Virus record (IMG/VR): IMGVR_UViG_3300025530_000275
Coordinates: 62,101-126,100 of that record
Strand: one strand, 5' to 3'
DNA from: a virus
Length of the DNA: 64,000 bases
Shown: one piece after another, positions 19,365 through 58,186 of the stretch
Numbering within the stretch: the stretch's first letter is position 1
Layout of the letters: each line of letters opens with the position of its first letter
Notes under the pieces: model-generated
Database searches by the model: none
The model's input: the letters and a program-made list of their open reading frames with translations, nothing else
Told to the model about the DNA's origin: nothing
Position numbers and translations under genes: made by a program

Positions 19365-20606
19365 ATGGCACGGGTAAAGATCAGTAAAATTCGTGTGTCT
19401 GACGAAGAACTGGAAGAATTGGGTATAAACAAAGACTTCTATGAGGATTGGCGTTCAGAGAACGGATTTATTAAAGTTTCCCTATCTCCTTGGGGCGCTG
19501 CAATGCTTAATGAGAGTATGGAAGATAAAATTGAGCAGAAGCGTAAGGAACTTGAAGAACTACGTAAAAAGTATTCCCAGCTTGAAGATATTAAGGAGAA
19601 GGGTTTATCTAAAAAAGAAAAGAAAAAGCTGAAGAAAGAGAAGAAGAAAAAGAAGAAGGAAAAGAAACGTCTGAAAAAACTTCCTGAATCTACGAAACTT
19701 CTTTATGGGGCTATTGAAGAATATCAAGAAAAGTTCCATAAAGATAAGAAAAAGAAAAAATATGATATTGGATTTGAAGGTTTAAGTGTTAAGGAAAAAA
19801 CTAAAAGAGATTCTAAACTGTCTGAAGAGGAAGTTGAAAAACGTAAAGAGGAGAAAGAGAGTAAAGAATTCGAAAAACGATTCGAAGAACCTCTTGCTCT
19901 AATTCGTGAAAACTTGATTGATATGACTGAGACTCTTGTTGAACTTAATGATATGATAAAGGAGACTAAAGAGTCTCGGGCTAGAAATAAGCATGTTATG
20001 CTTAAGGATCTTCTTACGACTAAGGTAAACTTATTTAATGCCAGAGCATCCAGTGCAAGATCTATGGCTGATATTCAGAGAGCCAGGGTTGATCTTGAGC
20101 TTAAGAGGGTTAAAGAGAAAGGTGCTACCGGTGATGAGAGAACCAAAAATATTGCTCTCATGAATAAACTCTTCCCTCAACTTTTGGCATCCGGCGCACT
20201 CGATAAAGGAATTGGTAAGTCTAAGAATGATGACGATGATGACTATAAGAAGGATAAGAAGAAGAAAAAGAAAAAAGTTAAAAATAGAGATAGTGAGGAA
20301 AACTTTGAGAAGAGAGTTACTAAATTGATTAAAGAGGGAGAAATTGAATTGAGCCCTCATGAGCTGGCTATAGATATGGAAGGAAAATATAAAGTTGCTA
20401 TTATGAAATCTTTTAAAACTGGCGACTGGGCCGTGGTTGCCACTGATTTGAATGGTAAAATTATTCGTGACTTTAAGGAACGATATCCAGGTCTTCTTCC
20501 TAAAAAGAAAGATTTGGACCTCAGGTGGGACGATGAAAAGGATATCGCTAAAGATAGGAAGACTGATAGAATCTTCCCGGTTATTCAAGTACCACATCTT
20601 TATTAA
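19365..20606 (+). CDS. hypothetical Lys/Glu-rich coiled-coil protein
   Basis: 413 aa ORF, GAGGAG RBS, late motif at 19314-19325. Confidence 0.75.
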   Translation: MARVKISKIRVSDEELEELGINKDFYEDWRSENGFIKVSLSPWGAAMLNESMEDKIEQKRKELEELRKKYSQLEDIKEKGLSKKEKKKLKKEKKKKKKEKKRLKKLPESTKLLYGAIEEYQEKFHKDKKKKKYDIGFEGLSVKEKTKRDSKLSEEEVEKRKEEKESKEFEKRFEEPLALIRENLIDMTETLVELNDMIKETKESRARNKHVMLKDLLTTKVNLFNARASSARSMADIQRARVDLELKRVKEKGATGDERTKNIALMNKLFPQLLASGALDKGIGKSKNDDDDDYKKDKKKKKKKVKNRDSEENFEKRVTKLIKEGEIELSPHELAIDMEGKYKVAIMKSFKTGDWAVVATDLNGKIIRDFKERYPGLLPKKKDLDLRWDDEKDIAKDRKTDRIFPVIQVPHLY

Positions 20607-20654
20607 CCAAAAAAAAAAATAAAGCTCTACAGGTATCAACCTGTAGAGCTGTTT

Positions 20655-20891
20655 TTATATTAGTCCTTGATACAGATCATGCCCGCATTCAATCTCCATC
20701 ATTTTTCTTTCTCTTCTAAGGTCCTCGTAACAATTGAGACACAGATTGCCAGTTAATTTTCCATCACCATAAATTTCATCTTTGTCACAAGAGCAAGGAT
20801 TCATAAACGGATTATTTTTTATCATACTCATTAAAAAGTGAACGATTGTCACCATCAGTAGAATATATACCTTGATTAGAACGTGCTTCAT
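20655..20891 (-). CDS. small Cys-rich hypothetical protein
   Basis: CSCD...CLNC; overlaps upstream ORF, start uncertain. Confidence 0.45.
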   Translation of the reverse strand: MKHVLIKVYILLMVTIVHFLMSMIKNNPFMNPCSCDKDEIYGDGKLTGNLCLNCYEDLRRERKMMEIECGHDLYQGLI

Positions 20892-20997
20892 TATAAGGTT
20901 CTTCCATGTCTATTTCACAGGAAATACACATACCATTCTTGAGTTCATCAGTGTATTCACCACAGACAGTACACCTATCAACAAAAATCTTACCCAT
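20812..20997 (-). CDS. small zinc-ribbon-like protein
   Basis: MGKIFVDRCTVC...CISC; AAGGAGG RBS before ATG 20997. Confidence 0.6.
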   Translation of the reverse strand: MGKIFVDRCTVCGEYTDELKNGMCISCEIDMEEPYNEARSNQGIYSTDGDNRSLFNEYDKK

Positions 20998-21016
20998 TTT
21001 ATCCTCCTTAATACAA

Positions 21017-21280
21017 TTAATCAGCCAACCAAGGATACCAGGTTCCTTGGTCAACTTTATAATTAAATGTCTTGAAAGAGATACCGTAACGCTCACGGAT
21101 TTTGAAATATTGAAAATATATTCGACGTTTTTTCAAAACTTCAAGTCGTTCACGTCTTTCCTTTATTCTTTCTTTCAAATCTTCTACTGCCTGCAAATAA
21201 TGTTCATCAATGAATTCCTCATTTTCTTCTTCCACAATTTGTTTATGAAAAATATTTTTCACTTTATCCAAAAGTTTCAT
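21017..21280 (-). CDS. hypothetical protein
   Basis: 87 aa, GGAGG RBS. Confidence 0.65.
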   Translation of the reverse strand: MKLLDKVKNIFHKQIVEEENEEFIDEHYLQAVEDLKERIKERRERLEVLKKRRIYFQYFKIRERYGISFKTFNYKVDQGTWYPWLAD

Positions 21281-21346
21281 AATTATCTACCTCCATGAAA
21301 AAATAAAGGAACACAGAAAAATTTATTCTGTATTCCTATTTAGAAG

Positions 21347-21574
21347 TCAGGTATTCAAAGTGTTTTCATTTTTCATTTTTTTATACTCTTCCAAGTCATC
21401 AAAAACTGCGACCACGAGTTCATGATATGCTTTAACCGGACATTTATCGCAGTCCAGTTTAATTCCTCTTGATGAACAAATGTGGCATGAAGTATTGAAA
21501 TTTTTCACTGCTTCTTCCTTCGTGTTGGCCATATCCTGATGAATTTTAGACAATTGAACAAACTTTTCTTTCAT
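21347..21574 (-). CDS. small Cys-rich hypothetical protein
   Basis: CHIC...CDKCP; GAGGTG RBS. Confidence 0.65.
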   Translation of the reverse strand: MKEKFVQLSKIHQDMANTKEEAVKNFNTSCHICSSRGIKLDCDKCPVKAYHELVVAVFDDLEEYKKMKNENTLNT

Positions 21575-21586
21575 AATAAATCACCT

Positions 21587-21982
21587 CTATAAAAATAGTT
21601 TGAATGACACAATAATTCTCTCTTCGAACTTTTTTTGAAAAGTCGGGTATTGACAAATAGCAATATTTACCTTCTTGTTATATCGACCCACTAGAAGCTT
21701 TACTTTATGTATTTTATTCATATGATTAAACTCCTGAGTAGGATCGAATATAAATCCTGCAATATTTTTTGTCATGACGACTTTTGATTCATAAAGTTGT
21801 AACGAATAAAGCATGTAAGGATGATGTAAGAATAATGGACAGATTAGACCACTCTTCATGGTTAAATAACCATGAACTTGAATATAACATCTGCTACTCC
21901 TATCATACAATATAAGACCAGGAACAATACTTTTTATTAGATTATCAGTATCACCTCTAGTTTTTAACATATTTTTAATCAC
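21587..21982 (-). CDS. hypothetical early protein
   Basis: ORF directly downstream of early motif 22000. Confidence 0.6.
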   Translation of the reverse strand: MIKNMLKTRGDTDNLIKSIVPGLILYDRSSRCYIQVHGYLTMKSGLICPLFLHHPYMLYSLQLYESKVVMTKNIAGFIFDPTQEFNHMNKIHKVKLLVGRYNKKVNIAICQYPTFQKKFEERIIVSFKLFL

Positions 21983-22065
21983 CTCCTCTATCTCAGTTAA
22001 ATAATATATAATTGAATAGTATTATACTTACAGAAAAAAGGCGGTATGGGAATTACCCATACCGC

Positions 22066-24792
22066 TTATACTATTTTAATCATATTATCAGGATCAAAAT
22101 TATCAATACCATGACCAGGAAATAGTATGAAACATACAGAATCTTTATAGTTTTCATAATACTGTCTTGCATGAGTTATCATAAATACTTGCGTAATTCC
22201 TATACGCTTAATTTGCTTCATGAGAATATTACAATAAACGGACTTATTATACTCAGAGAATCCACCATCCACTTCATCAAGAGCCAGAATACCATATGAT
22301 GCAATAACTTGCTCAATAAGTGCCATTGACAGACATGTTGATATGAATGCTCTCTCTGAGGTGGATGCATCAGATATATCATCTCCAGTCTCTCCATTAT
22401 GAGTAAATGGAATTGTAAACTCATTCTCATCAATAATGAATGGATGAAGATGTAATGTACCATCAAAAGTTTCACTCAATAATACATTTGCAGTTTTTCT
22501 AATTTCATCTACATACATATTCAAGAGACTTACTGCCATACCTTTATTAGTAGATAGAGCTTTCTTTATAAGAGAAAGGACTTTAAGATTTTCTTCTAGA
22601 ACTTCTTTTTCCATATTAAATTCTTTAATTTTGATTTCTTGATATTTATATTTATCTCTCTCTTGAGTAAGAGGCTTCAACTTATGTTCAATAATTTTGA
22701 GTTTTTGCTTTCTTTCATCAATTTTTTCATGAAGTTCATTGATTCTATTAATATCACTTTTAATCTTATCAAATCTATCAGATAGTTTGATTATTTCATC
22801 TTTACCTTCCTGAAGCTTGATAAACATTTCTCTAGCATCTGTCAACACTTGTTCTCTTTCTTTAAGAACTTCAAATAGTTCCTCCATTTCTTCAAGTTGT
22901 TTATCTTCTACCTTTATTTCTTCCATAAGGGATTCATACTTTTCAGTAAGTTTCTTTAAGTCGGATTTAATTGAATCCACCATATTCTTATTAGAATCGA
23001 ACTTTTCAAGCTCCATTTTTATCTTCGGAATTTTAATATTCTTGATTTCCTCATATTCAGCTTTATCTTGTAAGATTTCAATAAGATCATAATAATCATT
23101 CTCTACCGGCTCTATGGTTTTATACTTTTCCAATATTTTTAAAAGTTTTTCCTCGGTAGAAAATGAACTGTTGAATGGTAGCTTAGAGATAAGATAATAT
23201 TGACTTCTATAAATATTTACAAGATTCTCGACTTTAGCCTTCACTGTAATCATTTCAGCATATCTCTCAACCTTATCAACAAGATCATTATATTCTTTAT
23301 TAATTTCCCCAAGCTCGGATTCAAATTGTTTAATTTTCCTGTCAATCTGAACCCATTTGTGGTAATCTTGAAGGAATTCACATGAATCAATAGTGCAATC
23401 TTTTGGCCTCTTTGATATACTTTCTTTTAAGTACTCATAAGCTGAAAGTTTTGTTATGTTAGAAGTTAAATTATCTACTCGCTCTTTAATCTTATCATGC
23501 TTTTCTTTGGTTTGAATGTACTTTTCTTCAAGTTTATTTGTAAATATAGATTCAATAGACTCCTTCAATACTGAAGGGCTATCACAATTATTATATATAT
23601 CAATCATAAATTCTCTTAACGATTCTATTACATTTATACCCTGCTTTAAATCTTCTGCTGTTAATGAACTATTCAACTTTTTAGTTCTAGAGTCAAATTT
23701 TTCGATGGCTTCTTCATATTCTCTCAATAGTTTTACCAAATCCGATTTAGATAAATCACCAGATATCTGATTGAGAAATAATTCTTTCTCACTTATTTGA
23801 TCATATAAAGTAGACTTCATATATTTCTTAGAATTAAGTCTGGATCTTAGATCTACAAGCTCTCCCCAGATTTTATTTTTTAAGGCGGTAATTTCTTTAA
23901 GCTTCTTATCACATTCACTAAGAGTTTCAATATTGAAATCTTTTCGAATAACTTCAATTTTTGATAATATTTTCTCTTGAGTTTTCTCAAGGTCTTTTAA
24001 ATTAGACTTAATTTCTTTATACTCGGATTCCAATTTCCCTTCCGGATCAATAGAATCCAGCTCGGCTTTAAATTTGTTTAGCTTTCCTATAGTTTTATCA
24101 CGCTTTGCTACAAGTTCATTTGTCAAAGATTCTATTTCAGACAGTTTTTCTTTTACAGTAATCTCATCGTCCATTTTACCAAGTTTATCTGTAATAGACG
24201 TTAACAGAGATTTAACGTCTCTATATTTTTTATCAATTATTTTCTGATAAACTTGAGTGTCGTCTGCTTTAGGAATAAATTTATAGATATGATTTTTACG
24301 GTTGGCTCCGGTCATTTTGACTAAACCGACCATGTCTTCATTTTGAGTAGAAAGTCTCAGGAAATCTTCATCAATTCCAAATTCTTGTTCAACTGCTACA
24401 AGAAATGATGAAACATTCCCATTTGGATTAAGATCTTTTTCTACCCCATTCTCAATCTTAAAGATATAAGATTTAGTAGAATGAGATCCTGATTTATTTG
24501 GAATGTATACGTGCTTTATTTTTATCTGTTTTTCTTCGTCATAGATATCTTCATAAATTAAAAGTTTGTATCCTTCTTTTCCTTTTCTAATAAATTTATC
24601 CCTATTATCAGTAGTGCCAGAAAATGGGTGAAGGATTGATAATAGTGTAGATTTTCCTTTAGCATTTGGACCAAGAATAATAAATATGGATTTATCTCTA
24701 AATTCCTCTAAATTCAGAGAAACTGTCTTCTTTCCTAATCCATTATATAATCCAATAAAATTATGTGCTTCAAAATATCTTAATCTATACAA
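22066..24792 (-). CDS. sbcC: SbcC/Rad50-like SMC-family ATPase
   Basis: Walker A GPNAKGKST, long coiled coil with central CxxxxC, degenerate signature ASTSE, Walker B LDEVDG, ITH. Confidence 0.9.
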   Translation of the reverse strand: MYRLRYFEAHNFIGLYNGLGKKTVSLNLEEFRDKSIFIILGPNAKGKSTLLSILHPFSGTTDNRDKFIRKGKEGYKLLIYEDIYDEEKQIKIKHVYIPNKSGSHSTKSYIFKIENGVEKDLNPNGNVSSFLVAVEQEFGIDEDFLRLSTQNEDMVGLVKMTGANRKNHIYKFIPKADDTQVYQKIIDKKYRDVKSLLTSITDKLGKMDDEITVKEKLSEIESLTNELVAKRDKTIGKLNKFKAELDSIDPEGKLESEYKEIKSNLKDLEKTQEKILSKIEVIRKDFNIETLSECDKKLKEITALKNKIWGELVDLRSRLNSKKYMKSTLYDQISEKELFLNQISGDLSKSDLVKLLREYEEAIEKFDSRTKKLNSSLTAEDLKQGINVIESLREFMIDIYNNCDSPSVLKESIESIFTNKLEEKYIQTKEKHDKIKERVDNLTSNITKLSAYEYLKESISKRPKDCTIDSCEFLQDYHKWVQIDRKIKQFESELGEINKEYNDLVDKVERYAEMITVKAKVENLVNIYRSQYYLISKLPFNSSFSTEEKLLKILEKYKTIEPVENDYYDLIEILQDKAEYEEIKNIKIPKIKMELEKFDSNKNMVDSIKSDLKKLTEKYESLMEEIKVEDKQLEEMEELFEVLKEREQVLTDAREMFIKLQEGKDEIIKLSDRFDKIKSDINRINELHEKIDERKQKLKIIEHKLKPLTQERDKYKYQEIKIKEFNMEKEVLEENLKVLSLIKKALSTNKGMAVSLLNMYVDEIRKTANVLLSETFDGTLHLHPFIIDENEFTIPFTHNGETGDDISDASTSERAFISTCLSMALIEQVIASYGILALDEVDGGFSEYNKSVYCNILMKQIKRIGITQVFMITHARQYYENYKDSVCFILFPGHGIDNFDPDNMIKIV

Positions 24793-24837
24793 ATATAATT
24801 CATCCTCCCCATTGTGAGATATTTATAAGAATAAGAG

Positions 24838-25158
24838 TTAATTCTTTTTCAATTTTGCTTTCAAATCCCTACATGCAAATTCATCAGCAGTATAAACATC
24901 AATTCCCTCATTATAATAATTAAACCCAAGGACATCATCTATTAATTTTTGGAAATGTTTCCGCAAATTCTGATATTGTAATAGAGATATTTTATCATGT
25001 CGATTATTCCATCGTTCAATTACTTCTTCTTCTGTGTTTGCAAACATTGTTACAGTACAATTCTGACATTTAATAATTATCTTATTAATGTGAATCGGTT
25101 GAGAACCGCAAAACGGACATGGAGTTATGATTTTCATAACGTCTTCCCTCTTTTGCAA
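24838..25158 (-). CDS. Lar-family (restriction alleviation-like) Zn-finger protein
   Basis: PCPFCG...CQNC...EEVIERWNNR pattern. Confidence 0.7.
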   Translation of the reverse strand: MQKREDVMKIITPCPFCGSQPIHINKIIIKCQNCTVTMFANTEEEVIERWNNRHDKISLLQYQNLRKHFQKLIDDVLGFNYYNEGIDVYTADEFACRDLKAKLKKN

Positions 25159-25328
25159 TTTTTACATATTTCTCGCATATCATGTCACTCACTTTATCAT
25201 CTTAATAATCTAATAAAAAGTTCTTTATAAAATACATTTTCGTTTACCTATGTAAATAATATATACCTTATATAATAGTAAGATTATAGGGGATTGAAGA
25301 AAAAAAAATAAGCTAGCGGGTAGCTAGC

Positions 25329-26279
25329 TTATTTAAAATGCTTCTCAACGAATTTCAGCCTTCTGTCCCAATTGGGATGGGTTGAGAAAATATCCAGAGA
25401 TCTTACGTTGCCGAAAAATGCCAAAGTTGCGTTTTCTACCTTCGGATTTTCAATATTTTTGAATTCGTTTATTAGTTTAGTATATCTATCTAAGCCTACA
25501 ACCTTTGCAGCAAAAAGATCGGCTCTGAACTCCCTACGTCTAGAATAGGTGAGAGAAATTAATTTGAGGAGCCACATCACCACAATGTCCATAATGATGC
25601 CGACAATGAAATATATTGCATTCGAAAGATTGATTCCAAGATATTCTTCAATGGCTGTAGTGATAGGATATAGTACAATTTTAATGGGCAGAGTAAGTAG
25701 CGTAGTTGTTGCCACAAGGAAGAGATCCAAAAATGTTTGATTTCTCATGTCTCCGTTTACAATATGCCCCATTTCATGGGCTATAACTGCGAGCGCGGCA
25801 TCCTCAGACATATTTTCAAGGAAGGCAGATGTGATTACAATAAGACCCTTATTTCTTGTAGGCCCTATAGCATACGCATTAACCTCATCGGTTTCTTCAA
25901 TAGCTACTCTTGGGATATTGATTCTCAATTTGTCCGCCATTTCGACGATATACAGATATAGTTTCTTTTCGTATTCACTACCTATGAAACTACCATCTTC
26001 TGCGAATCCAATTTGTCTAACATTTTCTTTTTCCAAATACCTGTCTCTATGTGTGAAAAGATTGAAAAGAGTAATGATAAATTGAAATATCAGAATACCT
26101 GGAATTACATATAATAAAGCTCCGGCAGATACAATAGTTAAAGTCGTGAATGTAGACATAATCAAAAGAGTGATTATAACCGTGAATCTCCATCTACCTT
26201 TGCCGACTTTGATGTCATCCTTCGAGAAATCTAATCTCTCCGGATATTCCTTTCCAAGAATGTTTATCATAGTAATCAA
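25329..26279 (-). CDS. htpX: HtpX-like membrane zinc metalloprotease (M48)
   Basis: NAYA, AHEMGH, SRRREFRAD, STHP motifs with transmembrane segments. Confidence 0.9.
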   Translation of the reverse strand: MITMINILGKEYPERLDFSKDDIKVGKGRWRFTVIITLLIMSTFTTLTIVSAGALLYVIPGILIFQFIITLFNLFTHRDRYLEKENVRQIGFAEDGSFIGSEYEKKLYLYIVEMADKLRINIPRVAIEETDEVNAYAIGPTRNKGLIVITSAFLENMSEDAALAVIAHEMGHIVNGDMRNQTFLDLFLVATTTLLTLPIKIVLYPITTAIEEYLGINLSNAIYFIVGIIMDIVVMWLLKLISLTYSRRREFRADLFAAKVVGLDRYTKLINEFKNIENPKVENATLAFFGNVRSLDIFSTHPNWDRRLKFVEKHFK

Positions 26280-26378
26280 CTCCTTTAAATTAAAATTTTT
26301 TATGTGTAAGACTTAATACAAGGAACATAGAAAAAAATAAGGGGAAGGATTTTTGAGCCTCCCCCTTATACTGAATTA

Positions 26379-26828: not shown

Positions 26829-26862
26829 AGGTAAAACATCTCCTTTAAATTAAAATTTTTAG

Positions 26863-27030: not shown

Positions 27031-27057
27031 ATAAATATTTTGTGATATTAGCGAGAA

Positions 27058-27636: not shown

Positions 27637-29052
27637 TTATGATAGCAACGAAAATTCAACATCTGCATTGTCCTTTTTGACTATTTTTATATAACCGATG
27701 GATTCTTCTTCGTCATCCACTATATCATCAAAATCAGGACTTTCGTTATTATCAATAGGCTGAGGTTGAAATCTCATATCGTTGCGACTTTTAATATAAT
27801 TCATATTTGCTTCAAAATGTCTCTCTTTATCACCTTTTATCTTAGAGGAGGAAATTTTAATAGCTTCCTCAATACTCATTTTAGGATTGTTTGCGAGTAT
27901 ATACTTAGTAGAAGTAATAATTTCTTTCAATGATGCCATTGGCAGTCCTTTAGTATATTTGGCAAACAATTTACTTATATTTTCTTTAGTATCAAAGACC
28001 TCATTAAGATTCTTACTTTCAAAGAAAAGCAATCTAGTCTTATATGACGGGTTGTCAATTTTATAAGTTCTATCAAATCTACCTGAGCGATTCACAAACG
28101 CTGGATCGATTCTTTCAGGATAGTTTGTAGTTCCTATTATATATGACCCGGATTTCACATCAATGCCATCTAAAAGATTAAGAAATTCGGAACGGTTCTC
28201 AGTGTTAATAAGAGAATCCATATCTTCAATAATGATAATAGCTGATCTCCCATTTAATGCCCTAAGTAAAGATGATAATACATGAGTTATATCAAATGAT
28301 ATATTCGGATTTATTACAATCTTACTTACTTTTTCCCCAATACGTCGAATTATTTCTCTAATCAATGCAGATTTTCCTGTACCGGGGGGTCCATGTAATA
28401 TAGCTCCTCTTTTATAGGGGATGTCCATCTTCTTGTACAAATCTTTAGTTTCTTCGGAGAAGAATGAAGTTATATCGTTAATTACTTCACTTAGTATAGA
28501 TTTCTCTTCGAAAACCAGATTTTCATCAGATACACGTTTCTTTATAACATCGACCGGTTTATCAGATTTGCTACCGGCTTTAGATATTTCAATATATTCA
28601 CTAGGTTTACATTTAAAATCAATATCATTAAAGATATTGACCTGAGAAAAATCTTGTTGCAGGATAGGTTTAACGATCTTTGCAAATTTCTTCAATTTCT
28701 TGATATCGATCATAAATATGCAATAGAATGCATATTCATATACAGAATATATCATTGCAGTATTCAATTTTTTCGATATCGCAATTCTTTGAAACCGTTT
28801 GAAATCACTTATAAGTTCAAAGCTTCCGATAGGTCTAGTTGGTGGAAATAGCTTATGATAATCATATACATTTCCAATGTCCTTGAACTTACCCGCTTTT
28901 AATAACTGAGTTATAATAGTTGGATTATAGACATACATTGTACTAATCTGATAACGTTTAATGTTAAGCCTATTTTTGGGCTTAACTTTCTCTGTAACAA
29001 GCGTGTACAGAGCTTGTTCAATTGCCGGATCAAAAAATGACACTCGTATCAA
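27637..29052 (-). CDS. AAA+ ATPase
   Basis: GPPGTGKS, IIIEDMD, TTNYPERIDPAFVNRSGRFD. Confidence 0.92.
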   Translation of the reverse strand: MIRVSFFDPAIEQALYTLVTEKVKPKNRLNIKRYQISTMYVYNPTIITQLLKAGKFKDIGNVYDYHKLFPPTRPIGSFELISDFKRFQRIAISKKLNTAMIYSVYEYAFYCIFMIDIKKLKKFAKIVKPILQQDFSQVNIFNDIDFKCKPSEYIEISKAGSKSDKPVDVIKKRVSDENLVFEEKSILSEVINDITSFFSEETKDLYKKMDIPYKRGAILHGPPGTGKSALIREIIRRIGEKVSKIVINPNISFDITHVLSSLLRALNGRSAIIIIEDMDSLINTENRSEFLNLLDGIDVKSGSYIIGTTNYPERIDPAFVNRSGRFDRTYKIDNPSYKTRLLFFESKNLNEVFDTKENISKLFAKYTKGLPMASLKEIITSTKYILANNPKMSIEEAIKISSSKIKGDKERHFEANMNYIKSRNDMRFQPQPIDNNESPDFDDIVDDEEESIGYIKIVKKDNADVEFSLLS

Positions 29053-29130
29053 ACCTCTCCTCTTCCCTAAATTAACCTATAAGGGTTATGGGATTGATGT
29101 TCCCATAACCCTCTTGAATCCACACTATTC

Positions 29131-30651: not shown

Positions 30652-30652
30652 C

Positions 30653-30962: not shown

Positions 30963-32549
30963 CTAGTCTACTAGCACGGTGATAAGCTTGTTCCCTTTTG
31001 CTTTCTGGACAAGATATTTACTCCGCCTATTATATTGAGCAGCAGCCTCATTGAAGTCAATATTAACTATTTCTATATAGTAAACATTCTGACCGGGTAT
31101 TTCCCTACAACGTCCCGGTAATTGATTTGCATAAACTGGATTGCTATAGGGAATAAGGTTTATCATAACTTGTAAATCTGGAACATTTGCTCCGGTTCCA
31201 ATCCCTTTTTCAGTAGCGAGAATAATGTCCTTAGTTAGTTCAAGTTCGCGTTCCTTGATATTTTTAATTTCACTTGAATATAATCCTATACTATATTCAG
31301 GGAAATTTACTTCAAGGAATTTCTTTATGGTTTTAAGAAAGTCTATAGTTGCCCCAAGAATGAGCATTTTTCCTCTAAACTTCTCAGTTTTATTTAAACG
31401 GATAAATCCTTTTTCATTTCTTATATACTCACCATGAGAAACTTTTTCATGTTGTACATAGTTTGATTTTTCCCTACTTCTTATAAATATATCTCTTATA
31501 GCTCTATTTAAAGCTGTAAAAAATTGATATCTGGCCCCTTCCTTTGAGACCAAATAGTCAGAATATTTCACAGCAGATAGTCCTTCTTTTACTTTACACG
31601 AGGCTCTTTGCTTCATAGTGGGTTTATGTTTAAATTGATAGATTAGCATTATAATATAATTCTCTTCAGGCTTAACAAGTTCTTTCCCATATATTGGAAC
31701 TCCATAAAATATTTTCTTAAAGATTTCATTTTCAAATCTATCGCCCCTGTAAGCAGAGGCGGTCAAATAAATATTTTTCTTAATATTTGTATAGCAATCT
31801 ATAAGAACATTTGTTCTTAGATCCATATGTGCCTCATCAATTATTTTAACTCCTGCCCTAGTCTTTTCAATCATCTCTTGAAACTTAGGCCATCCATAAG
31901 TGTTCGCATATGATAGAACAGTTCCTTTAGTAATTATGAAAATCTCTTTATTCTCATATTTTCCTTTCCTAATATCTTCACACATATCAGAACCTCTAAC
32001 TACCAGAATATTATCATCCCTCTTATTTGTGAATGCAGTAAAAGCTTCGTACCATTGATCAATCAGCTTGCTTAATTTTGAGGGAATGAATATAATAGCT
32101 TTGGTTCTAAAATATGATAGTGATGCAACTGCACAATATGTTTTTCCTTTACCCGTATTGAGATCACAAAATACTTGAGAGAATTTATCAGTATAAGAAT
32201 GCTTTCCAAGACCACATAAAAATGAAATCATTTCAACTTGTAAAGTCTCTCTAGGTTGCTGATATAGTCTAATATCTATCTTATCATATTCTTGAGGTTT
32301 GAAATTAGTTGTTATTTTCCTTTGAAAGTCAAAATAACGGAGAATATCCTTATATGGATATCCTCTTGGTATTCTTAATTCATCTTTATCTTCATCATAA
32401 TAATAACCTATAGGAATATACTTATAAATTCTTTTATCAAAAACACTAAGTCGTTTTTCTAAAGTAGTTAAATCTTCATTCCCTTTTTTAAAATTGGGAA
32501 TTATATAGTGAGAAAAATTTGCAATTATATTATCATTCATCGCAATCAT
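30963..32549 (-). CDS. superfamily 2 DEAH helicase (UvsW-like)
   Basis: TGKGKT, IIDEAH, TAS, GTGANVP, QLPGRCR motifs. Confidence 0.9.
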   Translation of the reverse strand: MIAMNDNIIANFSHYIIPNFKKGNEDLTTLEKRLSVFDKRIYKYIPIGYYYDEDKDELRIPRGYPYKDILRYFDFQRKITTNFKPQEYDKIDIRLYQQPRETLQVEMISFLCGLGKHSYTDKFSQVFCDLNTGKGKTYCAVASLSYFRTKAIIFIPSKLSKLIDQWYEAFTAFTNKRDDNILVVRGSDMCEDIRKGKYENKEIFIITKGTVLSYANTYGWPKFQEMIEKTRAGVKIIDEAHMDLRTNVLIDCYTNIKKNIYLTASAYRGDRFENEIFKKIFYGVPIYGKELVKPEENYIIMLIYQFKHKPTMKQRASCKVKEGLSAVKYSDYLVSKEGARYQFFTALNRAIRDIFIRSREKSNYVQHEKVSHGEYIRNEKGFIRLNKTEKFRGKMLILGATIDFLKTIKKFLEVNFPEYSIGLYSSEIKNIKERELELTKDIILATEKGIGTGANVPDLQVMINLIPYSNPVYANQLPGRCREIPGQNVYYIEIVNIDFNEAAAQYNRRSKYLVQKAKGNKLITVLVD

Positions 32550-51040: not shown

Positions 51041-51144
51041 ACCGAGGTTCCTCCCTTTAAATAGTAGAATTTATATTAAGTTCTGAAATTAAATTACAAA
51101 AGAAACTCCCAGTGGTTTTTTACCACTGGGAGCTCTGTTGTTTG

Positions 51145-52791
51145 TTAGCTGAGGTAGAACCCGTCATAATAGTCGGCGTAGTTGTTCTGCATTTCGATAA
51201 CCGCCATCACCGGATAGTATTCCTTGGTTTGATAACGGCTCGAAACCATGATAGCCGGGAGCGCCGGGTTCACACTGCTCCGGTATTTGTTCGAAACGTA
51301 GTTCGCATACCGGTAGTGGTTGATCGTGATCATGTTGTTTTGGATCGAGTTCGGAATCAGGTTGACATAGATCTTACCCGGCTCCACGCGATCCGTGGAC
51401 AGGTAGAAGATCGTATTTCCGGTGCTCATAACCGCAAAATCGTAGTTGACTTGCGAGGTACCGGTCATATCTTGATTCCGGCGGAAGATATATTGCTCAC
51501 CGGAAGCGTTCGGAATCCGAATATCGATCGGGTTTCCGACAACGCGGAAGTGACAATCATCCAGTTGAAGTTCCGATTTCAGGCGGATACATACCCGTTC
51601 AATGAACGGATGGAATTCCCGCCGCAGCCATTCCTCACGACCCAGACTGAATCCAGCATCCGGGGTTGCATTGAACTGCTTCGTCAGAATAGCCTGGGAT
51701 TCGAGGTCTTTCAGGACTTCATAGATGGACCGGTCTTCGATTTGCTCGATCAGTTGACCCATTTGGTTGGTGTACTCTTCGAGCACGTTGACGCCAGTCA
51801 TGCGAGACACATCGTCGATGAATTCGACGGACGGATTCACTTCGATGTGTGCGCCATCCGGAATCGCAACGTTGGTGTGCTTGTGTTCGAAGCCCGTCAC
51901 CAGAGCTTTGAGGTGAGTTTCGGACGACAAGCGAGCAGCGAATGTAACCGTTTTGACGCGCGGCGAAGTCGAGCTCAGGCTCGTAAGAACAGCAGCTTCA
52001 AAATCAATTTCACCCATGATCGTTGCTTTCTTCTGGTCGTCGCCGAATACAACATCTACGCTGAAGCGACCAGTTTCGATGTCGATTTGGCGAGAACGGC
52101 CAACGATCTTGAGCGTATCCGGATCTTCCGGAGTCGTGCCATCTTCTTTGACAGCAGTGAATGCTTTCACAGAGATATCAATCGCAAGCTTGTTGCGGGC
52201 GTCGATCGAATTCTCCGCGAAGATGTCATAGCTAGATGCCGGGCAGTCAACCGTAAAGTCGAATTTTTGATGCAGGTTGTTCACCAGATTCGAGTTGCGG
52301 TTGAAAGCATCGACGAAGTAATGCTTGTTGCCTTGGATGTCGATCACGTATTGTTTACGTTCAGTGATCTTGAACGCAGGCTTCTCAGCCTGTACCGTTT
52401 TCACGGCGCGGTGCATAACAGCTTTCACATAAGAGCGAATTTGGAAACCGAACGACGTCAGCGAAATCGGCTTCAGTGCAGCCAGACCTTGCTGAGTAGA
52501 CTCAGTGAGCAGCTCGTTGACAACGTTTTGCATCGAAACTGCACGGGCCGCAGCATCTTCCCGAAGAACAGCGTTAACCAATCCAGTGCCTTCAAATTGT
52601 TGGCGTTCAAGGATTTCATTGACGGACTCCAGGAACGCTTGTGCGGACTCCTTCGATTTGAAAATGCTTGCCATATCGTTGGCGACGTTGCTTCCATACG
52701 TTTCATACAACGCTTCATAGAAGCTCTGCACCTGGCGATCGGAAGCGGTAGACATCCCCAACGTCAGCTCAAGATATTCCGGCTTTGACAT
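51145..52791 (-). CDS. major capsid protein precursor
   Basis: Strongest high-expression codon bias in the window; probable LLTE/S maturation site; adjacent to protease; followed by terminator. Confidence 0.8.
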   Translation of the reverse strand: MSKPEYLELTLGMSTASDRQVQSFYEALYETYGSNVANDMASIFKSKESAQAFLESVNEILERQQFEGTGLVNAVLREDAAARAVSMQNVVNELLTESTQQGLAALKPISLTSFGFQIRSYVKAVMHRAVKTVQAEKPAFKITERKQYVIDIQGNKHYFVDAFNRNSNLVNNLHQKFDFTVDCPASSYDIFAENSIDARNKLAIDISVKAFTAVKEDGTTPEDPDTLKIVGRSRQIDIETGRFSVDVVFGDDQKKATIMGEIDFEAAVLTSLSSTSPRVKTVTFAARLSSETHLKALVTGFEHKHTNVAIPDGAHIEVNPSVEFIDDVSRMTGVNVLEEYTNQMGQLIEQIEDRSIYEVLKDLESQAILTKQFNATPDAGFSLGREEWLRREFHPFIERVCIRLKSELQLDDCHFRVVGNPIDIRIPNASGEQYIFRRNQDMTGTSQVNYDFAVMSTGNTIFYLSTDRVEPGKIYVNLIPNSIQNNMITINHYRYANYVSNKYRSSVNPALPAIMVSSRYQTKEYYPVMAVIEMQNNYADYYDGFYLS

Positions 52792-52888
52792 GTTTCTTTT
52801 CCTCCTTTAGTAGAGTAAGTAAAATATTTATTCTTTGTTGGGTTTTTATAAAACCTCGATTTTATGTTGATTCTTGAAAATTAATTTT

Positions 52889-53536
52889 TTATTTATCTTT
52901 AGAAGACATTTCTACGATGTTTTTATAAAGTTCATCTAAATATCGTTTTTCTAGCACAAATTGCATAAAATTATGGTAATTTATCTCATAGGAATTATCA
53001 GCATATTTATATAGAATATAATCATTAAGCTTCTCCAAAAGATCTGAACCCTTCTCAATAGCTATCGTCAAATAATGCCTTACATGATCAGAAGTTGGTA
53101 CAAATTCAGATAGTTCATTAATAAGTCTTGAAGTGTCATCTCTTAAATCTCTATATTTATTAAAATTTTTGAAAGCAAGTATACTTCTGGTTTTTGGGTC
53201 TATATTTAACAGACTGCCAGGTTTGGGTTCATTAGATATTGAAGATGACTCACCTCCCGAATCTTCGCCAGCTTCAGGTTCAGTAGATGAAGAGTCATCT
53301 TGATCGTCTGAATCGTCTTCGTCTTCTAAACCATACTTATCATCTTCAGAATCATCCTGATTCGGATTATCCTCAGCGGATTCATCCCCTTCAGGTTCTT
53401 GATCGCTAGTTGCAGGCTGTTCTTCTCCACTAGCAATATCTTCTTCATTTTCAAGATCATATTTATCCTCTTCTGCTTCCAAGAGAATATTATTTCCTTC
53501 CAATATCATCTTGAGTCTTTCTTTAATAGATGACAC
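52889..53536 (-). CDS. acidic head/scaffold-like protein
   Basis: LLEAEE then long acidic disordered tract; N-terminus similar to the 37869 protein (IKERLKMILEG vs LKERLRTLLEG). Confidence 0.55.
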   Translation of the reverse strand: MSSIKERLKMILEGNNILLEAEEDKYDLENEEDIASGEEQPATSDQEPEGDESAEDNPNQDDSEDDKYGLEDEDDSDDQDDSSSTEPEAGEDSGGESSSISNEPKPGSLLNIDPKTRSILAFKNFNKYRDLRDDTSRLINELSEFVPTSDHVRHYLTIAIEKGSDLLEKLNDYILYKYADNSYEINYHNFMQFVLEKRYLDELYKNIVEMSSKDK

Positions 53537-53549
53537 TGTAATCCCTCCT

Positions 53550-54248
53550 TTAGTCCTTTATGTTATACTGTATTCGATCCATTGCTCTACCAATTTGATT
53601 TTCAATTCTCATAAGTTTATATTTAGCCTTAATATCTCCTCTGGCCTCAGCATCCTTGATTTTTTCTTGCACAACCCTCAATTCAAATTTCAGGTCGTTA
53701 AAAATAAGATTCTTATATTTTGCATCAGTTCTTTTATCAATAGCAGTTTGAACTAAAATTGCTAATATAGTAGAAATAATTTTTACAGGAATTCCCCCAG
53801 GAATAAGAAGTCCTATAATAAAAGACCTTATAAGATTCTTGAGCATTCTTGAAAGATCTATGGTTCTTTTAACCACAGTATCATAGGTTGCATTTCTTTT
53901 ACTTTCTCTATGAAGTTTAATAAATCTATTGAATTTCTCATTTAACCTTTCGGCCATTTGTTTTTCAGCAAGAGTAAATTTGACAAGAGTTTTCGATACT
54001 TTATCTTTAGCCTTTCTAAATGTCTGAGCTATATTTTCATTTAATTGCGCCTCATCAATTTCTTCAATAATAATAGATTCTTGAATAGTTTCTATAAGAG
54101 AATCGATCAAGGCTTCCAGTTTTAAATCTTGATCAATCCCATCATCTTTATTTTCCAGCGTATCTTCAAAATTCAATTCATTTATTGATTCAAGTATTTT
54201 CATCTTGTGCTCGGATATAAACTTACTATTGTAAAAGCTTGTATCCAT
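53550..54248 (-). CDS. putative virion head protein
   Basis: ILES/IQES sites; late motif at 54281. Confidence 0.55.
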   Translation of the reverse strand: MDTSFYNSKFISEHKMKILESINELNFEDTLENKDDGIDQDLKLEALIDSLIETIQESIIIEEIDEAQLNENIAQTFRKAKDKVSKTLVKFTLAEKQMAERLNEKFNRFIKLHRESKRNATYDTVVKRTIDLSRMLKNLIRSFIIGLLIPGGIPVKIISTILAILVQTAIDKRTDAKYKNLIFNDLKFELRVVQEKIKDAEARGDIKAKYKLMRIENQIGRAMDRIQYNIKD

Positions 54249-54367
54249 GAAAATTCTCTCCCTTTATGAATATATTAGATTATTCAAATGTTTCAAAATA
54301 TACATTAGTACAGCGTTTGGTAATTCAAACACTACAATAATAGTAGACTACTTTTTTGAGAAAGGAT

Positions 54368-55252
54368 ATGATGAAAAATATGTTTACCACCAAAACAAAA
54401 AAAGAGTTTCCTATCTACTATATAGTAGAAGCAGCAATCAACCCAGACGACATAAAGACTGAGATTATAAGAGAAAATGTAGTAGATACGGCAGATGGGA
54501 AGAAAGTGAAGACTGTTACTGCCGAATCTGTTCTTCAAAGCTTCGAAAGAATTAATTGGAATGGTCGTAGTTATCCTGGAAATATTGTTATGAGAAGTCT
54601 TAATGAAGACCCGAAAATTCAAAACGATATTCGTATGAGACAATGGGCAGGGGAATGGTGCCATCCGGACAGCACAAGCCCCGTTCGTCAATCTCAAGTT
54701 CTTGATCCTTTCGTGTCTCATTATATTGATAAGTATTGGCAGGATGGAAACCTTCTTAAGGCACATGTAACCACGGCACCTTTTGGCTACGGTTTGGATA
54801 TGTATAACAAACTTATGGCAGGTCGTCCATGGGGCTTCTCTCTCCGGGCATTTGGGGCTACTGATTCAAACAATGTAGCTATTTGGCCTCTTAGAATTAT
54901 CACCTATGACCAGGTAAACAGACCTTCACATAAAGAGGCATATTCTACAAGACAAAACGTCATTTCTAAAAACGAATACACTGATGATTTCTTACAGGAA
55001 TGTTCGGTTATGTATCCCGTAGATCAATCTACTCTACAAAAAGAAATTACAAACTTCGTTCTTGAAAAATCCGATAATGTAAAGATCGCTAAAGAATTGT
55101 TTGGTCTCCAAGAATCTCAAGGAGAGTTTAATGATAAAGGCCAAGTAATGCTTGAAGGATCTTATCTTGGTACTACTATTAGAGTATATCTTCCAGTGGA
55201 GTCATATATTCGAGAAAATTATATGAATATGCTCCGCAGTCTTAAGCAATAA
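54368..55252 (+). CDS. prohead (capsid maturation) protease, T4 gp21-like
   Basis: NWNGRSY, GEWCHP, FSLRAFG (catalytic Ser), TYDQVNRPSH. Confidence 0.88.
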   Translation: MMKNMFTTKTKKEFPIYYIVEAAINPDDIKTEIIRENVVDTADGKKVKTVTAESVLQSFERINWNGRSYPGNIVMRSLNEDPKIQNDIRMRQWAGEWCHPDSTSPVRQSQVLDPFVSHYIDKYWQDGNLLKAHVTTAPFGYGLDMYNKLMAGRPWGFSLRAFGATDSNNVAIWPLRIITYDQVNRPSHKEAYSTRQNVISKNEYTDDFLQECSVMYPVDQSTLQKEITNFVLEKSDNVKIAKELFGLQESQGEFNDKGQVMLEGSYLGTTIRVYLPVESYIRENYMNMLRSLKQ

Positions 55253-55281
55253 TATTGAAATATAGTTCTCTTTGAGGAGGG

Positions 55282-56004
55282 TTGTTAATGAATATCAATA
55301 CAATACTGGATATACTCCTCAACCAAAGGCTTGGTCTTGTTGAATATAAATTGGATTATTTATATCCAGAGATTCATAAAAATCTTCTTACTAACACATT
55401 ACCTATCTTCTCACAATACTTTCCATATTATAGAAGATATTTATTCAATCCCAGTGAAAATAAGTCAGACGTCGAAAATGAATATTATCTGAATATACCG
55501 GAGGTCCAAGCAAATAAATTACATGTTATTTCAGTAGCAGATGTGAGGGCTAAATCCGGGGTTGAAGGTAATGCATTTATGGATAGCTATAGACCATTTG
55601 CAATGACGATAGAGGACGTTCTTATTAACTCTGCGTCTACAAATATTGCATCCTTGACTAACTATAGTTACAGAATGTTTAGATTTATACCTCCTAATAA
55701 AATACGTCTAAAAGGTTTTGGAGAATATGAGGTATATATCACATTAAAATTGACATACCCATCATTCTCATCTATACCAGAATCTATAATAGAGCAATTC
55801 CTCGACTTGGCGGAATGTGATATAAAAATCTTCATATATAATAAGCTGAAACATTATGATCAGCTTAGTATGCCTATGGGTAATATGGATCTCAAACTTG
55901 GAATATTCGAGAATGGCGAATCCGAACGTAGAGATCTTATAGAGAAATTCAATACGAGAGGATTTGCAAATAAGGCTCGAAGATTCTATCATCGTTACGA
56001 GTAA
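55282..56004 (+). CDS. putative neck/head-completion protein
   Basis: TLPIFSQYFP...FLDLAECDIK pattern; follows protease. Confidence 0.5.
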   Translation: MLMNINTILDILLNQRLGLVEYKLDYLYPEIHKNLLTNTLPIFSQYFPYYRRYLFNPSENKSDVENEYYLNIPEVQANKLHVISVADVRAKSGVEGNAFMDSYRPFAMTIEDVLINSASTNIASLTNYSYRMFRFIPPNKIRLKGFGEYEVYITLKLTYPSFSSIPESIIEQFLDLAECDIKIFIYNKLKHYDQLSMPMGNMDLKLGIFENGESERRDLIEKFNTRGFANKARRFYHRYE

Positions 56005-56030
56005 TTTTCAAATTAAGCAAAAAAAAAAAT

Positions 56031-56063
56031 AAATCCAGGGAAGGTGTATTCTTCCCTGGATTT
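56031..56063. terminator. bidirectional intrinsic terminator
   Basis: AAATCCAGGGAAG/CTTCCCTGGATTT stem between convergent genes. Confidence 0.85.
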
Positions 56064-56064
56064 G

Positions 56065-56295
56065 TTATCCATTTATTTCTCTTGCCACTTCTTCAATTAC
56101 TCTGAAACTCCCATCTACATATTCCGCACCTTCAATGGGAAGATAATCAATATTCTCGGCGATTTGTAAAGCCTCATCAATATCCCGAGCCTTGATTCTC
56201 ACATAGTTTCCTACTTCCCAGGTTATCGGAATTGTATATTCCTTCTGTAACCATACTTTGATTTTACTTTTTGCCACCGAACGGCCCTTCCTCAT
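56065..56295 (-). CDS. hypothetical protein
   Basis: 76 aa ORF overlapping the beta-N stop. Confidence 0.55.
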   Translation of the reverse strand: MRKGRSVAKSKIKVWLQKEYTIPITWEVGNYVRIKARDIDEALQIAENIDYLPIEGAEYVDGSFRVIEEVAREING

Positions 56296-58186
56296 TTAGT
56301 TCTATTTTTATAAGCCCATTTTTGTTTCTCACATACGACCCTGGGCTATAATCAGGTCTCGGTCTAGCTGTTATCCTGATAAGATGGAAGTTCCTCTTAA
56401 TTACAATAAACCCTTTAGAATTACGCACATAAGCAGACGAGTCCAAATTTCTTTGAACTTTTATCAGTCCACTAGATGTACGCACATACTCTGGTTTGAC
56501 AATTTGAATGTAACCTTCATCATTCCTAAAATCTCTATACTTCAGATTGAACTTACGTTTATCATGTTCTTCTCTAATTGCCTTATAGTGAGCTTGTATC
56601 ATTCCATAATACTGCTCATTTTCTTTAATTTGCTTAATACGTTTTCTGAGTCTCTTAGCATATGGTCTTTCAATAGACTCAGAATCCCCGAAATATCCGC
56701 CATCATAGATCTTACAGAACGGTGTTAACATACCAGAAATTCCAGGTGAGCTCGATGAAATAGCATTAAGCTCAAATCTTCCAAGATAGCTAGGATAAAT
56801 ATCTCGTTGTTCATCCTTAACCTTATCAGAGGGTAGACCCTGAATCCCTGTGAATGAAAACTTCAAGCCATTTAGCGCTTGAAGATCATTGATATCAATA
56901 TTGTAACGGAATAGAGGAGAAGGTTTCCTCCCTCTGAATAGTGACTTTATCAAAATGTGCTCATCAAATTTGAAGATTCTAGAAAGTTTTTCTTTGTCAT
57001 ACGGCCTCAAATTGAGGGCATAATTGACCTTATCTTTCAAGAATCTACTAAAATGAGCAGCAATATATTCATTGGTCCTTATTCTCTTATTGAGAAGAGA
57101 ATTATTATCCATATTTCTCAGTTCGTTAAACTCCCTCATCATCCAACGCAATACACAATAGATATCTGCTTTATCTTTATAGTCTATTCTCAGAGAATTC
57201 TGAGTTGCAGAATCAAGAACATTTCTAAATGATTTTAGTACATCATATCCTTTATTCAACTGATTTTTTGCAGCGGACGTGAAAAGAGAACCAAGCCTCT
57301 TTACCCATAACTCATTATCATAGATATCCTCAATTTTATTTCTAGTATTGAAGATCTGGATAAGCATTCCGGTAAATGATCTAAAGAACGCATCATCTTC
57401 AAATAAAGTCTTTTCCGCTTCTAGAAGTATATTCGAGTTTACTTTGAAGTAATAGAATAGTTCAGGGTTTTTCACTTCAGTCACTACGTTTAGAAACTTA
57501 TCATAACCAAAGAACTCGATTGTTCCCAATATTCCCTTTTTAGCAGCAAAATAGAAAATAGGATTGAATTTCTTTTTGAATAAATTTACCACGAGATTAC
57601 TAATCCTAAATTCTTTACCGGAATCTACACATATAAGAATAAATCTTTTACGCTTATCTTCTCTACTAAGTCTGAGTTGAATTCTTGACTTTAGAATCAC
57701 CTCACCTTTCCGGTTATAGGTAGCATTATCAACTACCTGGAACATGGCAAGAGTCTTGTTTCCGGAAATCATGAAGTGATATCTATCTATATATTTTGGA
57801 AGAAGGATAGTATTTTCAACTTTTTCGCCACCGACAATATCTACAGTAAATTTTATAGCATCATAGATATCCGGTTGAACCGGAATGAGTTTTTCAATTC
57901 TATTCTTAATAATCTTCCTATTCTTGATATTCCTCAAATTCAGACGAATATCAAGTTTTGAAGGATCTCGAATATATTCAACATCTCTTACAAAGATATC
58001 AGGAAGCATTTCGATAGATTTCAGATCTTCAGCAATAAACTCCCAGATTTGTTTCCCTTTTCTTCTATCAAAGAGATCTTCATTGACACCAGCTTCAGTG
58101 GCCATTCTGTCTGACATCATTGCGACCATTTGGCTCACATAGTTTTTCGCCAATCCTATCTTCCTTCCTTTCCGCTTATAGTACAC
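56264..58186 (-). CDS. rpoB: RNA polymerase beta N-terminal subunit (non-virion type)
   Basis: LLPKY..FMISGNKTLAMFQ, NKRIR, RDIYPSYLGRF...SPGISGML; C-terminal repeat tail. Confidence 0.85.
   Translation of the reverse strand: MYYKRKGRKIGLAKNYVSQMVAMMSDRMATEAGVNEDLFDRRKGKQIWEFIAEDLKSIEMLPDIFVRDVEYIRDPSKLDIRLNLRNIKNRKIIKNRIEKLIPVQPDIYDAIKFTVDIVGGEKVENTILLPKYIDRYHFMISGNKTLAMFQVVDNATYNRKGEVILKSRIQLRLSREDKRKRFILICVDSGKEFRISNLVVNLFKKKFNPIFYFAAKKGILGTIEFFGYDKFLNVVTEVKNPELFYYFKVNSNILLEAEKTLFEDDAFFRSFTGMLIQIFNTRNKIEDIYDNELWVKRLGSLFTSAAKNQLNKGYDVLKSFRNVLDSATQNSLRIDYKDKADIYCVLRWMMREFNELRNMDNNSLLNKRIRTNEYIAAHFSRFLKDKVNYALNLRPYDKEKLSRIFKFDEHILIKSLFRGRKPSPLFRYNIDINDLQALNGLKFSFTGIQGLPSDKVKDEQRDIYPSYLGRFELNAISSSSPGISGMLTPFCKIYDGGYFGDSESIERPYAKRLRKRIKQIKENEQYYGMIQAHYKAIREEHDKRKFNLKYRDFRNDEGYIQIVKPEYVRTSSGLIKVQRNLDSSAYVRNSKGFIVIKRNFHLIRITARPRPDYSPGSYVRNKNGLIKIELNEEGPFGGKK

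Follow-up and report, generated by a model that had tools for sequence, protein, structure and literature searches.

A short peptide motif on unrelated proteins of a jumbo phage clade as a candidate docking or targeting tag

Cells organise replication and transcription with the help of hub-docking peptides and sorting signals. Clamp-binding peptides belong to the former kind and include the bacterial QL[SD]LF motif, the PIP-box and the C-terminal gp45-binding tails of T4 gp43, gp33 and gp55; to our knowledge, the T4 clamp is the sole well-studied phage case of a hub with docking peptides. In the nucleus-forming jumbo phages (chimalliviruses), import into the phage nucleus through the PicA/Imp pathway is selective and operates via a folded surface patch, and bioinformatic searches have found neither a conserved signal sequence nor a linear import signal (PMC11087766). 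Here we describe a short peptide motif that is shared by the RNA polymerase (RNAP) beta-N subunit, an SF2 helicase and an uncharacterised protein encoded from position 19365 (hereafter the 19365 protein) in a 64,000-nucleotide window, bases 62101–126100 of the virus record IMGVR_UViG_3300025530_000275 (G000; 206,953 bp, GC content 34%). The motif is real, strongly non-random and conserved, and a new tag for docking or targeting, similar in general kind to known ones, is the reading that suits it best. That it serves one lineage-specific receptor is the reading we favour, with a probability of roughly 0.55.

The beta-N, DnaB-like helicase and SF2 helicase sequences of G000 share 25–35% identity with those of the Bacillus phages AR9 and PBS1, the Staphylococcus jumbo phages, Listeria phage LPJP1 and Yersinia phage phiR1-37, the cultured phages used for comparison, and G000 is therefore assigned, by sequence, to the jumbo phages encoding multisubunit RNAPs as an uncultivated and distant member. 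Since the homologous beta-N P0084 and DnaB P0032 sit on different contigs, whole IMG/VR genomes were used for the comparison among relatives. These comprise seven near-complete genomes (G001, G005, G006, G007, G009, G011 and G015), one genome that is 79% complete (G008) and three partial contigs (G002–G004), and all six-frame open reading frames (ORFs) of these genomes were scanned with profiles of the tag.

In a six-frame scan of the whole G000 genome, the N-type pattern R-[NST]-x-x-G-[FYL]-I-x-[IVL] matches seven times, always in long genes, and non-coding frames give zero matches. The seven matches are spread over four proteins, with four copies in beta-N and one each in the SF2 helicase, the 19365 protein and a DnaB-like helicase encoded outside the window. 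The six copies in the window had been noticed in a first-pass annotation made from the letters alone, and translation places all of them where that annotation had put them (Table 1). Comparison with shuffled proteins, the check proposed at that time, sets the motif far above chance: 2000 shuffles of the 183-ORF proteome yield a mean of 0.10 matches and a maximum of 2, as against the seven observed. Furthermore, a pattern learnt from the four beta-N copies alone finds three matches elsewhere (Poisson probability ~2e-4), and a profile built from the seven copies scores its members at 27–32 bits, whereas the next-best sequence in the G000 proteome reaches 4 bits. The extended consensus is [YFW]-[VI]-R-N-x-[KN]-G-[FYL]-I-x-[IVL]. 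The motif spans 9–11 residues and fixes R, N/D and G together with an aromatic residue at G+1 and aliphatic ones at G+2 and G+4, leaving the rest of its positions free. Synonymous codons vary from copy to copy, and selection therefore acts on the peptide; by the same token, a repeat at the DNA level or a recent duplication is ruled out.

A degenerate further copy, Y-G-R-T-x-x-G-H-I-A-I, is found in an 85-aa G000 protein outside the window, and it is a real member, since the orthologues of this protein hold clean copies at the same position. No Pfam or PHROG family and no PDB sequence matches the tag regions or covers the tails, and our searches of these databases and of the literature found the motif described in no curated family, solved structure or paper, nor did the literature search find a paper joining jumbo phages with short linear motifs. 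The first-pass annotation had also counted a partial copy, GYIKIV (27679–27696, minus strand), which follows the acidic tail of an AAA+ ATPase. This copy has to be given up: it scores 2.8 bits, at the level of noise, and is without the R-N-x-x half of the motif. The sequence GYIKIVKK after the acidic tail is conserved in the relative G001. The AAA+ ATPase itself (window 27637–29052, minus strand) shows weak similarity to clamp-loader PHROGs (phrog_168, E = 7e-8).

The most prominent carrier is the beta-N subunit, on which the motif had been proposed to be multivalent, as the four confirmed tail copies bear out. The homology core of beta-N ends near residue 520, where the phrog_2943 match ends, and is followed by a clade-specific C-terminal extension that holds the copies. 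The beta-N subunits of AR9, MarsHill and LPJP1 stop where the G000 extension starts and have no such tail, and among AR9 and its relatives, whose comparison had been suggested, the AR9, PBS1 and Staphylococcus jumbo phage orthologues are all without the tag-carrying segments. By comparison, all four repeats are kept with the same spacing in the beta-N subunits of G001–G004 (76–81% identity), three copies are present in the clade at 54–69% identity, and three variant copies are present at 29% identity. A phmmer search with the tail against 1.84 billion representative proteins returned two true matches, both of them beta-N orthologues with three repeats, and a third match that is a low-complexity artefact. 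In the structural model of the tail (predicted local distance difference test score (pLDDT) 57), a helical hairpin at residues ~502–549 is confident, and short strands flank the N-x-x-G turn in three of the four copies with packing that is not confident. The model thus suggests that a beta-hairpin shape of the tag is plausible, not established.

In the SF2 helicase, the tag lies within a segment of ~30 residues between the two RecA-like halves, which is missing from the AR9, BpSp and SA1 helicases. An alignment of 33 homologues reveals this segment to be a clean insertion, present only in the clade at 74–100% identity and in two relatives at 55–60%, and missing from eight other helicases at 49–57% identity (P0101–P0108) and from all more distant ones. 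The insertion also holds an upstream copy of the tag, degenerate in G000 and intact in G001 and G004. In an AlphaFold2 model of the helicase (49 sequences), the mean pLDDT is 90.5, whereas residues ~361–390 average 54–62; because confidence is this low on an otherwise confident fold, the insertion is predicted to be a flexible loop at the surface, placed ahead of the first strand in the second RecA-like domain. A buried core position, named in the first-pass annotation as a ground for doubting the motif, is not what we find: the copy sits in a clade-specific insertion and in a low-confidence loop. The SF2 helicases of G005 and G006 have no tag, nor do those of the clade at 50–57% identity, and that of G011 carries it at the N-terminus (residues 17–27) and not internally. 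The SF2 family has thus received the tag by independent grafts at different sites.

The tag of the DnaB-like helicase lies beyond the Pfam and PHROG matches. DnaB homologues of the clade at 50–83% identity keep the tag with invariant Y, R, G and I, so that it forms a conserved island in a variable tail; homologues at 33–40% identity have variant forms in one to four copies, and shorter homologues are without the tail. A third variant of the DnaB tail, S-S-N-G-L-F-[VI]-x-V-P, occurs near the C-terminus in another group of phages, of ~215–225 kb (L075–L077, L080–L082 and L084). In G015, where the variant reads S-S-N-G-L-F-V-x-V-P, a simple pattern search did not find it on other proteins, and the G015 lineage may use the DnaB-tail peptide on the helicase only. 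A separate observation concerns G008, in which the DnaB-like gene (117103–121574) matches query residues 29–628 over 2472 nt and has a longest open frame of 511 aa, which points to a frameshift or to an intein or intron as an intervening element.

Conservation and turnover of the tag were followed across the related genomes. The SF2, DnaB and 19365 orthologues of G001–G004 keep the tag, and G001, G005 and G006 carry it on the same proteins as G000, with the exception of the SF2 helicases noted above, and on additional ones. The additional carriers are a 125-aa protein of G001 with a domain of 'HNH endonuclease' PHROG families, an 81–96-aa protein of G001, G005 and G006 whose G000 orthologue is the protein with the degenerate copy, and an orthologous pair of uncharacterised proteins in G005 and G006. 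Weaker copies occur at the C-terminus of a PC4-like single-stranded DNA (ssDNA)-binding protein in G005 (9.4 bits) and in G006, and these stay below the threshold for counting a carrier. G000 encodes a PC4/p15-like ssDNA-binding protein outside the window (genome 26379–26867; PF02229, E = 4e-7), and the tails of this protein in G000 and G001 hold just degenerate remnants of G-L-F type.

In G009 and G011, whose beta-N subunits share ~30% identity with that of G000, all carriers display a different dialect of the tag, R-D-x-[DEKN]-G-F-x-x-L followed by a basic residue or proline (D-type). The D-type carriers of G009 include beta-N, DnaB, the 19365 orthologue, a NAD-dependent DNA ligase (at its N-terminus), an Avd-like protein and two proteins of the HNH family. 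In G011, at least 16 proteins carry the D-type. Among them are a reverse transcriptase of the diversity-generating retroelement (DGR) type with two copies, Avd, an Ant/KilA-N protein and four HNH-family proteins, in addition to beta-N, DnaB, the 19365 orthologue, the small tagged protein described above and the SF2 helicase. The tagged reverse transcriptase and the tagged Avd-like protein are encoded together at G011 144896–147146, and the retroelement of G011 appears to be addressed like the replication enzymes. Counts of N-type and D-type matches, with the D-type expectation in brackets, are 7 and 0 in G000 (0.24), 7 and 0 in G001 (0.30), 6 and 1 in G005 (0.28), 5 and 2 in G006 (0.31), 0 and 0 in G007 (0.24), 0 and 0 in G008 (0.23), and 0 and 10 in G009 (0.21; ten matches in nine proteins); the N-type expectation is ~0.1 per genome throughout. 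Profile and pattern scans alike found no tag at all in G007. Orthologous tag positions change dialect together, and base composition is not the cause of the switch because G005 and G006, at 41–45% GC, keep the N-type.

Across six genomes, 37 of 41 carriers hold a copy within 45 residues of an end, as compared with 14.8 expected under uniform placement. The carriers that can be assigned to a family are all nucleic-acid proteins, namely the non-virion RNAP, DnaB, the SF2 helicase, the NAD-dependent ligase, the DGR reverse transcriptase, Avd, Ant and seven proteins of HNH endonuclease families. The tag has the features of a short linear motif in that it is short with few fixed positions, lies outside folded cores, and is gained, lost and independently acquired. 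Its plasticity is evident from the clade-specific insertion in the helicase, the N-terminal graft in G011, the tagged accessory HNH genes and the variable copy number. The earlier suggestion that one motif had been placed in tails and loops of proteins with unrelated folds is thus borne out, and the motif behaves as a selected and position-independent module.

We favour a docking or targeting signal because the peptide is short, sits at termini or in loops, is freely gained and lost, has been grafted independently, is present in selfish genes and changes dialect in concert. The lineage dialects, common to all carriers of a genome, lend strong indirect support, at the level of sequence, to a single partner. 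A protein receptor is preferred over DNA because the conserved residues are mainly hydrophobic and the turns of the D-dialect are acidic. The nucleic-acid roles of all family-assigned carriers point to the place where phage DNA is replicated and transcribed as the destination. We therefore propose a self-contained peptide that probably folds as a beta-hairpin, turns tightly at N/D-x-x-G and has its conserved hydrophobics on the second strand; the phage clade would place it at termini or in exposed loops of proteins acting on phage nucleic acid. Its partner would be a single lineage-specified receptor, which could be a hub protein where replication and transcription take place or a gate that controls entry there. 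To this place would be recruited the non-virion RNAP through four copies, the presumably hexameric replicative helicase through one copy per subunit, and the SF2 helicase; in relatives, the DNA ligase, the DGR reverse transcriptase, Avd, the Ant-type protein and selfish HNH endonucleases would follow. In a stronger and, in our view, doubtful version, the tag is a genuine sorting signal, and this chimallin-less branch houses its replicating DNA in a compartment with selective entry or has it guarded by a gatekeeper; the presence of the tag on selfish homing endonucleases and DGR machinery would thereby be explained.

Several observations weigh against a docking tag with a single receptor. The carrier list is identical to the one that direct DNA binding predicts, the DNA polymerase carries no tag, and the low confidence of the beta-N tail model leaves the hairpin no firmer than suggested. 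The exact D-type counts are slightly optimistic, because we wrote the D-type regular expression with the profile hits already in view. Our search for a receptor identified none. Sliding clamps of beta type (PF02768) or gp45 type (PF09116) have no match in G000, although a host clamp or a divergent phage clamp may still serve, and a single-sequence search of limited sensitivity with chimallin (phiKZ gp54, residues 118–625) gave no match at E<=1 in G000, G001, G005, G006 or G009. Seven G000 proteins have the phyletic profile of presence in G001, G005, G006 and G009 and absence from G007. Three of them have unrelated functions (a tail-fibre-like protein, an SLT transglycosylase and a polyphosphate kinase), and the other four, the 19365 protein and uncharacterised proteins of 355, 280 and 185 aa, have no PDB or cultured-phage match and no informative homologues. 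The gene of the 355-aa protein lies at genome 29631–30698, that of the 280-aa protein at window 13984–14826 and that of the 185-aa protein at genome 173864–174421. Furthermore, profile searches over 22 genomes blurred the correlation between their presence and that of the tag. The polyphosphate kinase 1 (genome 195446–197584, outside the window) is full-length and contains each of the four PPK1 Pfam domains (best E = 2e-67); G001, G005, G006, G008 and G009 share it, and it was not found in G007. Chimallin is reportedly missing from PBS1, PALS_2 and phiR1-37, the nearest cultured relatives (10.1101/2023.02.24.529968), and the lack of a detectable homologue in G000 agrees with this.

The phyletic profile, the gene pair described next, and the distribution and promoter of the 19365 gene are leads and not findings. 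A conserved gene pair outside the window (genome 173864–174757) consists of a gene for an 81–110-aa protein ending in the tag and, directly downstream, the gene of the clade-specific 185-aa protein; the pairing holds in G000, G001, G005, G006 and G011, and the 185-aa protein is a candidate partner of the tag. The 19365 protein has stretches rich in Lys and Glu and, at the C-terminal side, a region whose composition is mixed. Its tag is at the same position in G001, G005 and G006 and is present in a D-dialect version in G009 and G011. Full-length orthologues are restricted to tag-bearing genomes, and shorter homologues that cover the central region only are more widespread; an ESM Atlas search with the protein gave nothing useful. 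Its gene is preceded by a site of late-promoter type, AACA-N6-TA, which is found within 120 nt upstream of 40 of the 183 genes (background 0.037 per 120 nt) and is absent upstream of the three enzyme-carrier genes.

The main rival of a docking tag is direct binding to DNA or RNA, in which the peptide is a miniature AT-hook-like module whose one to four copies raise the affinity for phage DNA, and under which the dialects might track lineage-specific features of the DNA. In its favour are the carriers, every one of which, where a family can be assigned, comes from a nucleic-acid-handling family, the variation of the copy number between 1 and 4, and the conservation of aromatic and basic positions. 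The tag also bears what we take to be a loose likeness to the beta1–beta2 hairpin of the cold-shock domain (W-F-N-x-x-K-G-F-G-F-I), and small C-terminal DNA-binding modules are common in homing endonucleases. However, the best-conserved positions, G+1, G+2 and G+4, are hydrophobic and not basic, the turns of the D-dialect (R-D-E-D-G, T-D-S-D-G) are net-acidic and would fit a DNA contact poorly, and no cold-shock, AT-hook or other Pfam match is obtained. We consider direct binding unlikely. That the tags bind each other or the 19365 protein, as multivalent 'stickers' that build a replication and transcription factory or condensate, is less likely again. This idea draws on the high valency, with four copies on beta-N and six on a DnaB hexamer (the hexamer being assumed from the family), on beta-N repeats that are modelled without confident packing, and on the 19365 protein, which is Lys/Glu-rich, always tagged and full-length only where the genome bears tags. 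But the 19365 gene has a late-type promoter and the enzyme genes have none, and single-copy carriers such as the small HNH proteins fit a client–receptor relationship better.

A recognition signal for a protease or chaperone, timing turnover or folding, would account for the terminal placement, which is typical of degrons, and a GroEL-like chaperonin and an AAA+ ATPase are encoded near the carriers. Nevertheless, four tandem copies on an essential RNAP subunit are hard to square with a degradation signal, the tag is conserved across wide divergence on core replication enzymes, and nothing links it to any protease, so that we regard this explanation as very improbable. Finally, the beta-N tail could be an ordinary polymerase domain, the equivalent of the beta 'external 1' region, with coincidental hairpins elsewhere. 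Language-model features of the tail in the ESM Atlas do resemble those of Rpb2 domain 4/5 and external-1 at 0.85–0.90, a range that we treat as context leakage or as a lead only. Enrichment, orthologue conservation, dialect covariation and repeated independent grafts contradict such a coincidence, as do the AR9-type polymerases without the tail, and it is scarcely credible.

Returning to the docking or targeting tag, clamp-binding peptides are probably its closest functional analogues. Like them, the tag is a short peptide, located terminally or in loops, that would dock many unrelated proteins of DNA transactions to one hub, and, as with the T4 gp45 clients, transcription proteins are included, which would link the replication and transcription machineries. 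The differences are nonetheless clear. The tag is without the Q and without the LF or FF pair, and no copy contains QL[SD]LF or Q-x-x-[LIM]-x-x-[FY]-[FY]. Whereas clamp-binding peptides are extended or 3-10 helical, the tag is probably a hairpin and is repeated in up to four tandem copies. Moreover, its clients include the replicative helicase and homing endonucleases, and a clamp gene was not detected in G000. Chimalliviruses encode multisubunit RNAPs as well, and jumbo phages of this kind have to bring RNAP, helicases and recombination proteins to phage DNA, with recognition that is lineage-specific; in the present clade, by contrast, there is an explicit linear tag, and no chimallin homologue was detected. 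A linear tag in this sister group is notable because chimalliviruses use a surface patch without a conserved signal sequence.

With AT-hooks, the tag shares a very short module in variable copy number on the tails of unrelated DNA-associated proteins; it differs from them in lacking an R-G-R-P core in every copy, in conserving hydrophobic positions and in the acidic turns of one of its dialects. It likewise differs from the cold-shock domain, since it gives no Pfam match at E<=0.1 and is without both the G-F dipeptide of K-G-F-G-F-I and the remaining strands of the five-stranded OB fold. Terminal sorting signals (nuclear localisation signals, PTS1, Tat, Sec and the T4 capsid-targeting sequence) resemble it as terminal peptides that are common to functionally related cargo, can be transferred in evolution and are taken up by newly acquired or selfish genes. 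Unlike these signals, it is located at either terminus or internally, is sometimes repeated, and is associated with no cleavage site or known translocon. In particular, the capsid-targeting sequence of T4 type is an N-terminal leader of ~10 residues that the prohead protease cuts off at a Glu, whereas most copies of the tag are C-terminal or internal and have no conserved Glu site after them.

The 19365 gene adjoins that of the untagged DNA polymerase (1270 aa; window 15376–19188, minus strand). Together with the gene of the GroEL-like chaperonin (window 11475–13235, minus strand; phrog_5725, E = 4e-59), the polymerase gene flanks the region upstream of the 19365 gene, and an SbcC-like subunit without a tag (window 22066–24792, minus strand; phrog_77, E = 3e-43) is encoded between the 19365 gene and that of the AAA+ ATPase.

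Table 1. Positions of tag copies and of the features that hold them (window coordinates unless marked as genome coordinates)
Feature	Position	Strand	Basis
AACA-N6-TA site of late-promoter type, beginning 51 nt upstream of the 19365 start codon	19314..19325	+	motif scan
19365 protein, 413 aa	19365..20606	+	no Pfam, PHROG or PDB match
N-terminal tag of the 19365 protein, W-R-S-x-N-G-F-I-K-V (nine-residue core 19452-19478, residues 30-38)	19449..19478	+	translation, profile
SF2 (ResIII/DEAD) DNA helicase, 528 aa	30963..32549	-	Pfam PF04851 and PF00270, phrog_16
Insertion of ~30 residues (residues ~353-386) between the two RecA-like halves	31392..31493	-	alignment, model
Tag copy within the SF2 insertion	31395-31421	-	translation
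Non-virion RNA polymerase beta-N subunit, 640 aa	56264..58186	-	tblastn to AR9 gp105 and Staphylococcus jumbo phage non-virion RNAP beta
Four tandem tag copies in the beta-N tail (span)	56303..56527	-	translation, profile
Beta-N tag, residues 554-562	56501-56527	-	translation
Beta-N tag, residues 569-577	56456-56482	-	translation
Beta-N tag, residues 588-596	56399-56425	-	translation
Beta-N tag, residues 620-628	56303-56329	-	translation
Tag copy outside the window, in the DnaB-like helicase (20 residues from its C-terminus)	genome 145507-145533		six-frame scan

A linear tag marks the polymerase, helicases, ligase, DGR proteins and homing endonucleases across a whole clade of uncultivated phages, and it provides a means of predicting from sequence which phage proteins act at phage DNA. 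The tag peptide used as bait offers a direct route to the receptor, and the two dialects amount to a natural swap experiment for the specificity of recognition. Should the receptor be a gate and not a hub, phage DNA would be selectively compartmentalised in a wider range of phages than those with chimallin. Should the tag be a true sorting signal, a protein would need the linear hairpin in the dialect of its own lineage to reach the DNA, and a bacterial virus would, for the first time, have a linear 'nuclear localisation signal'.

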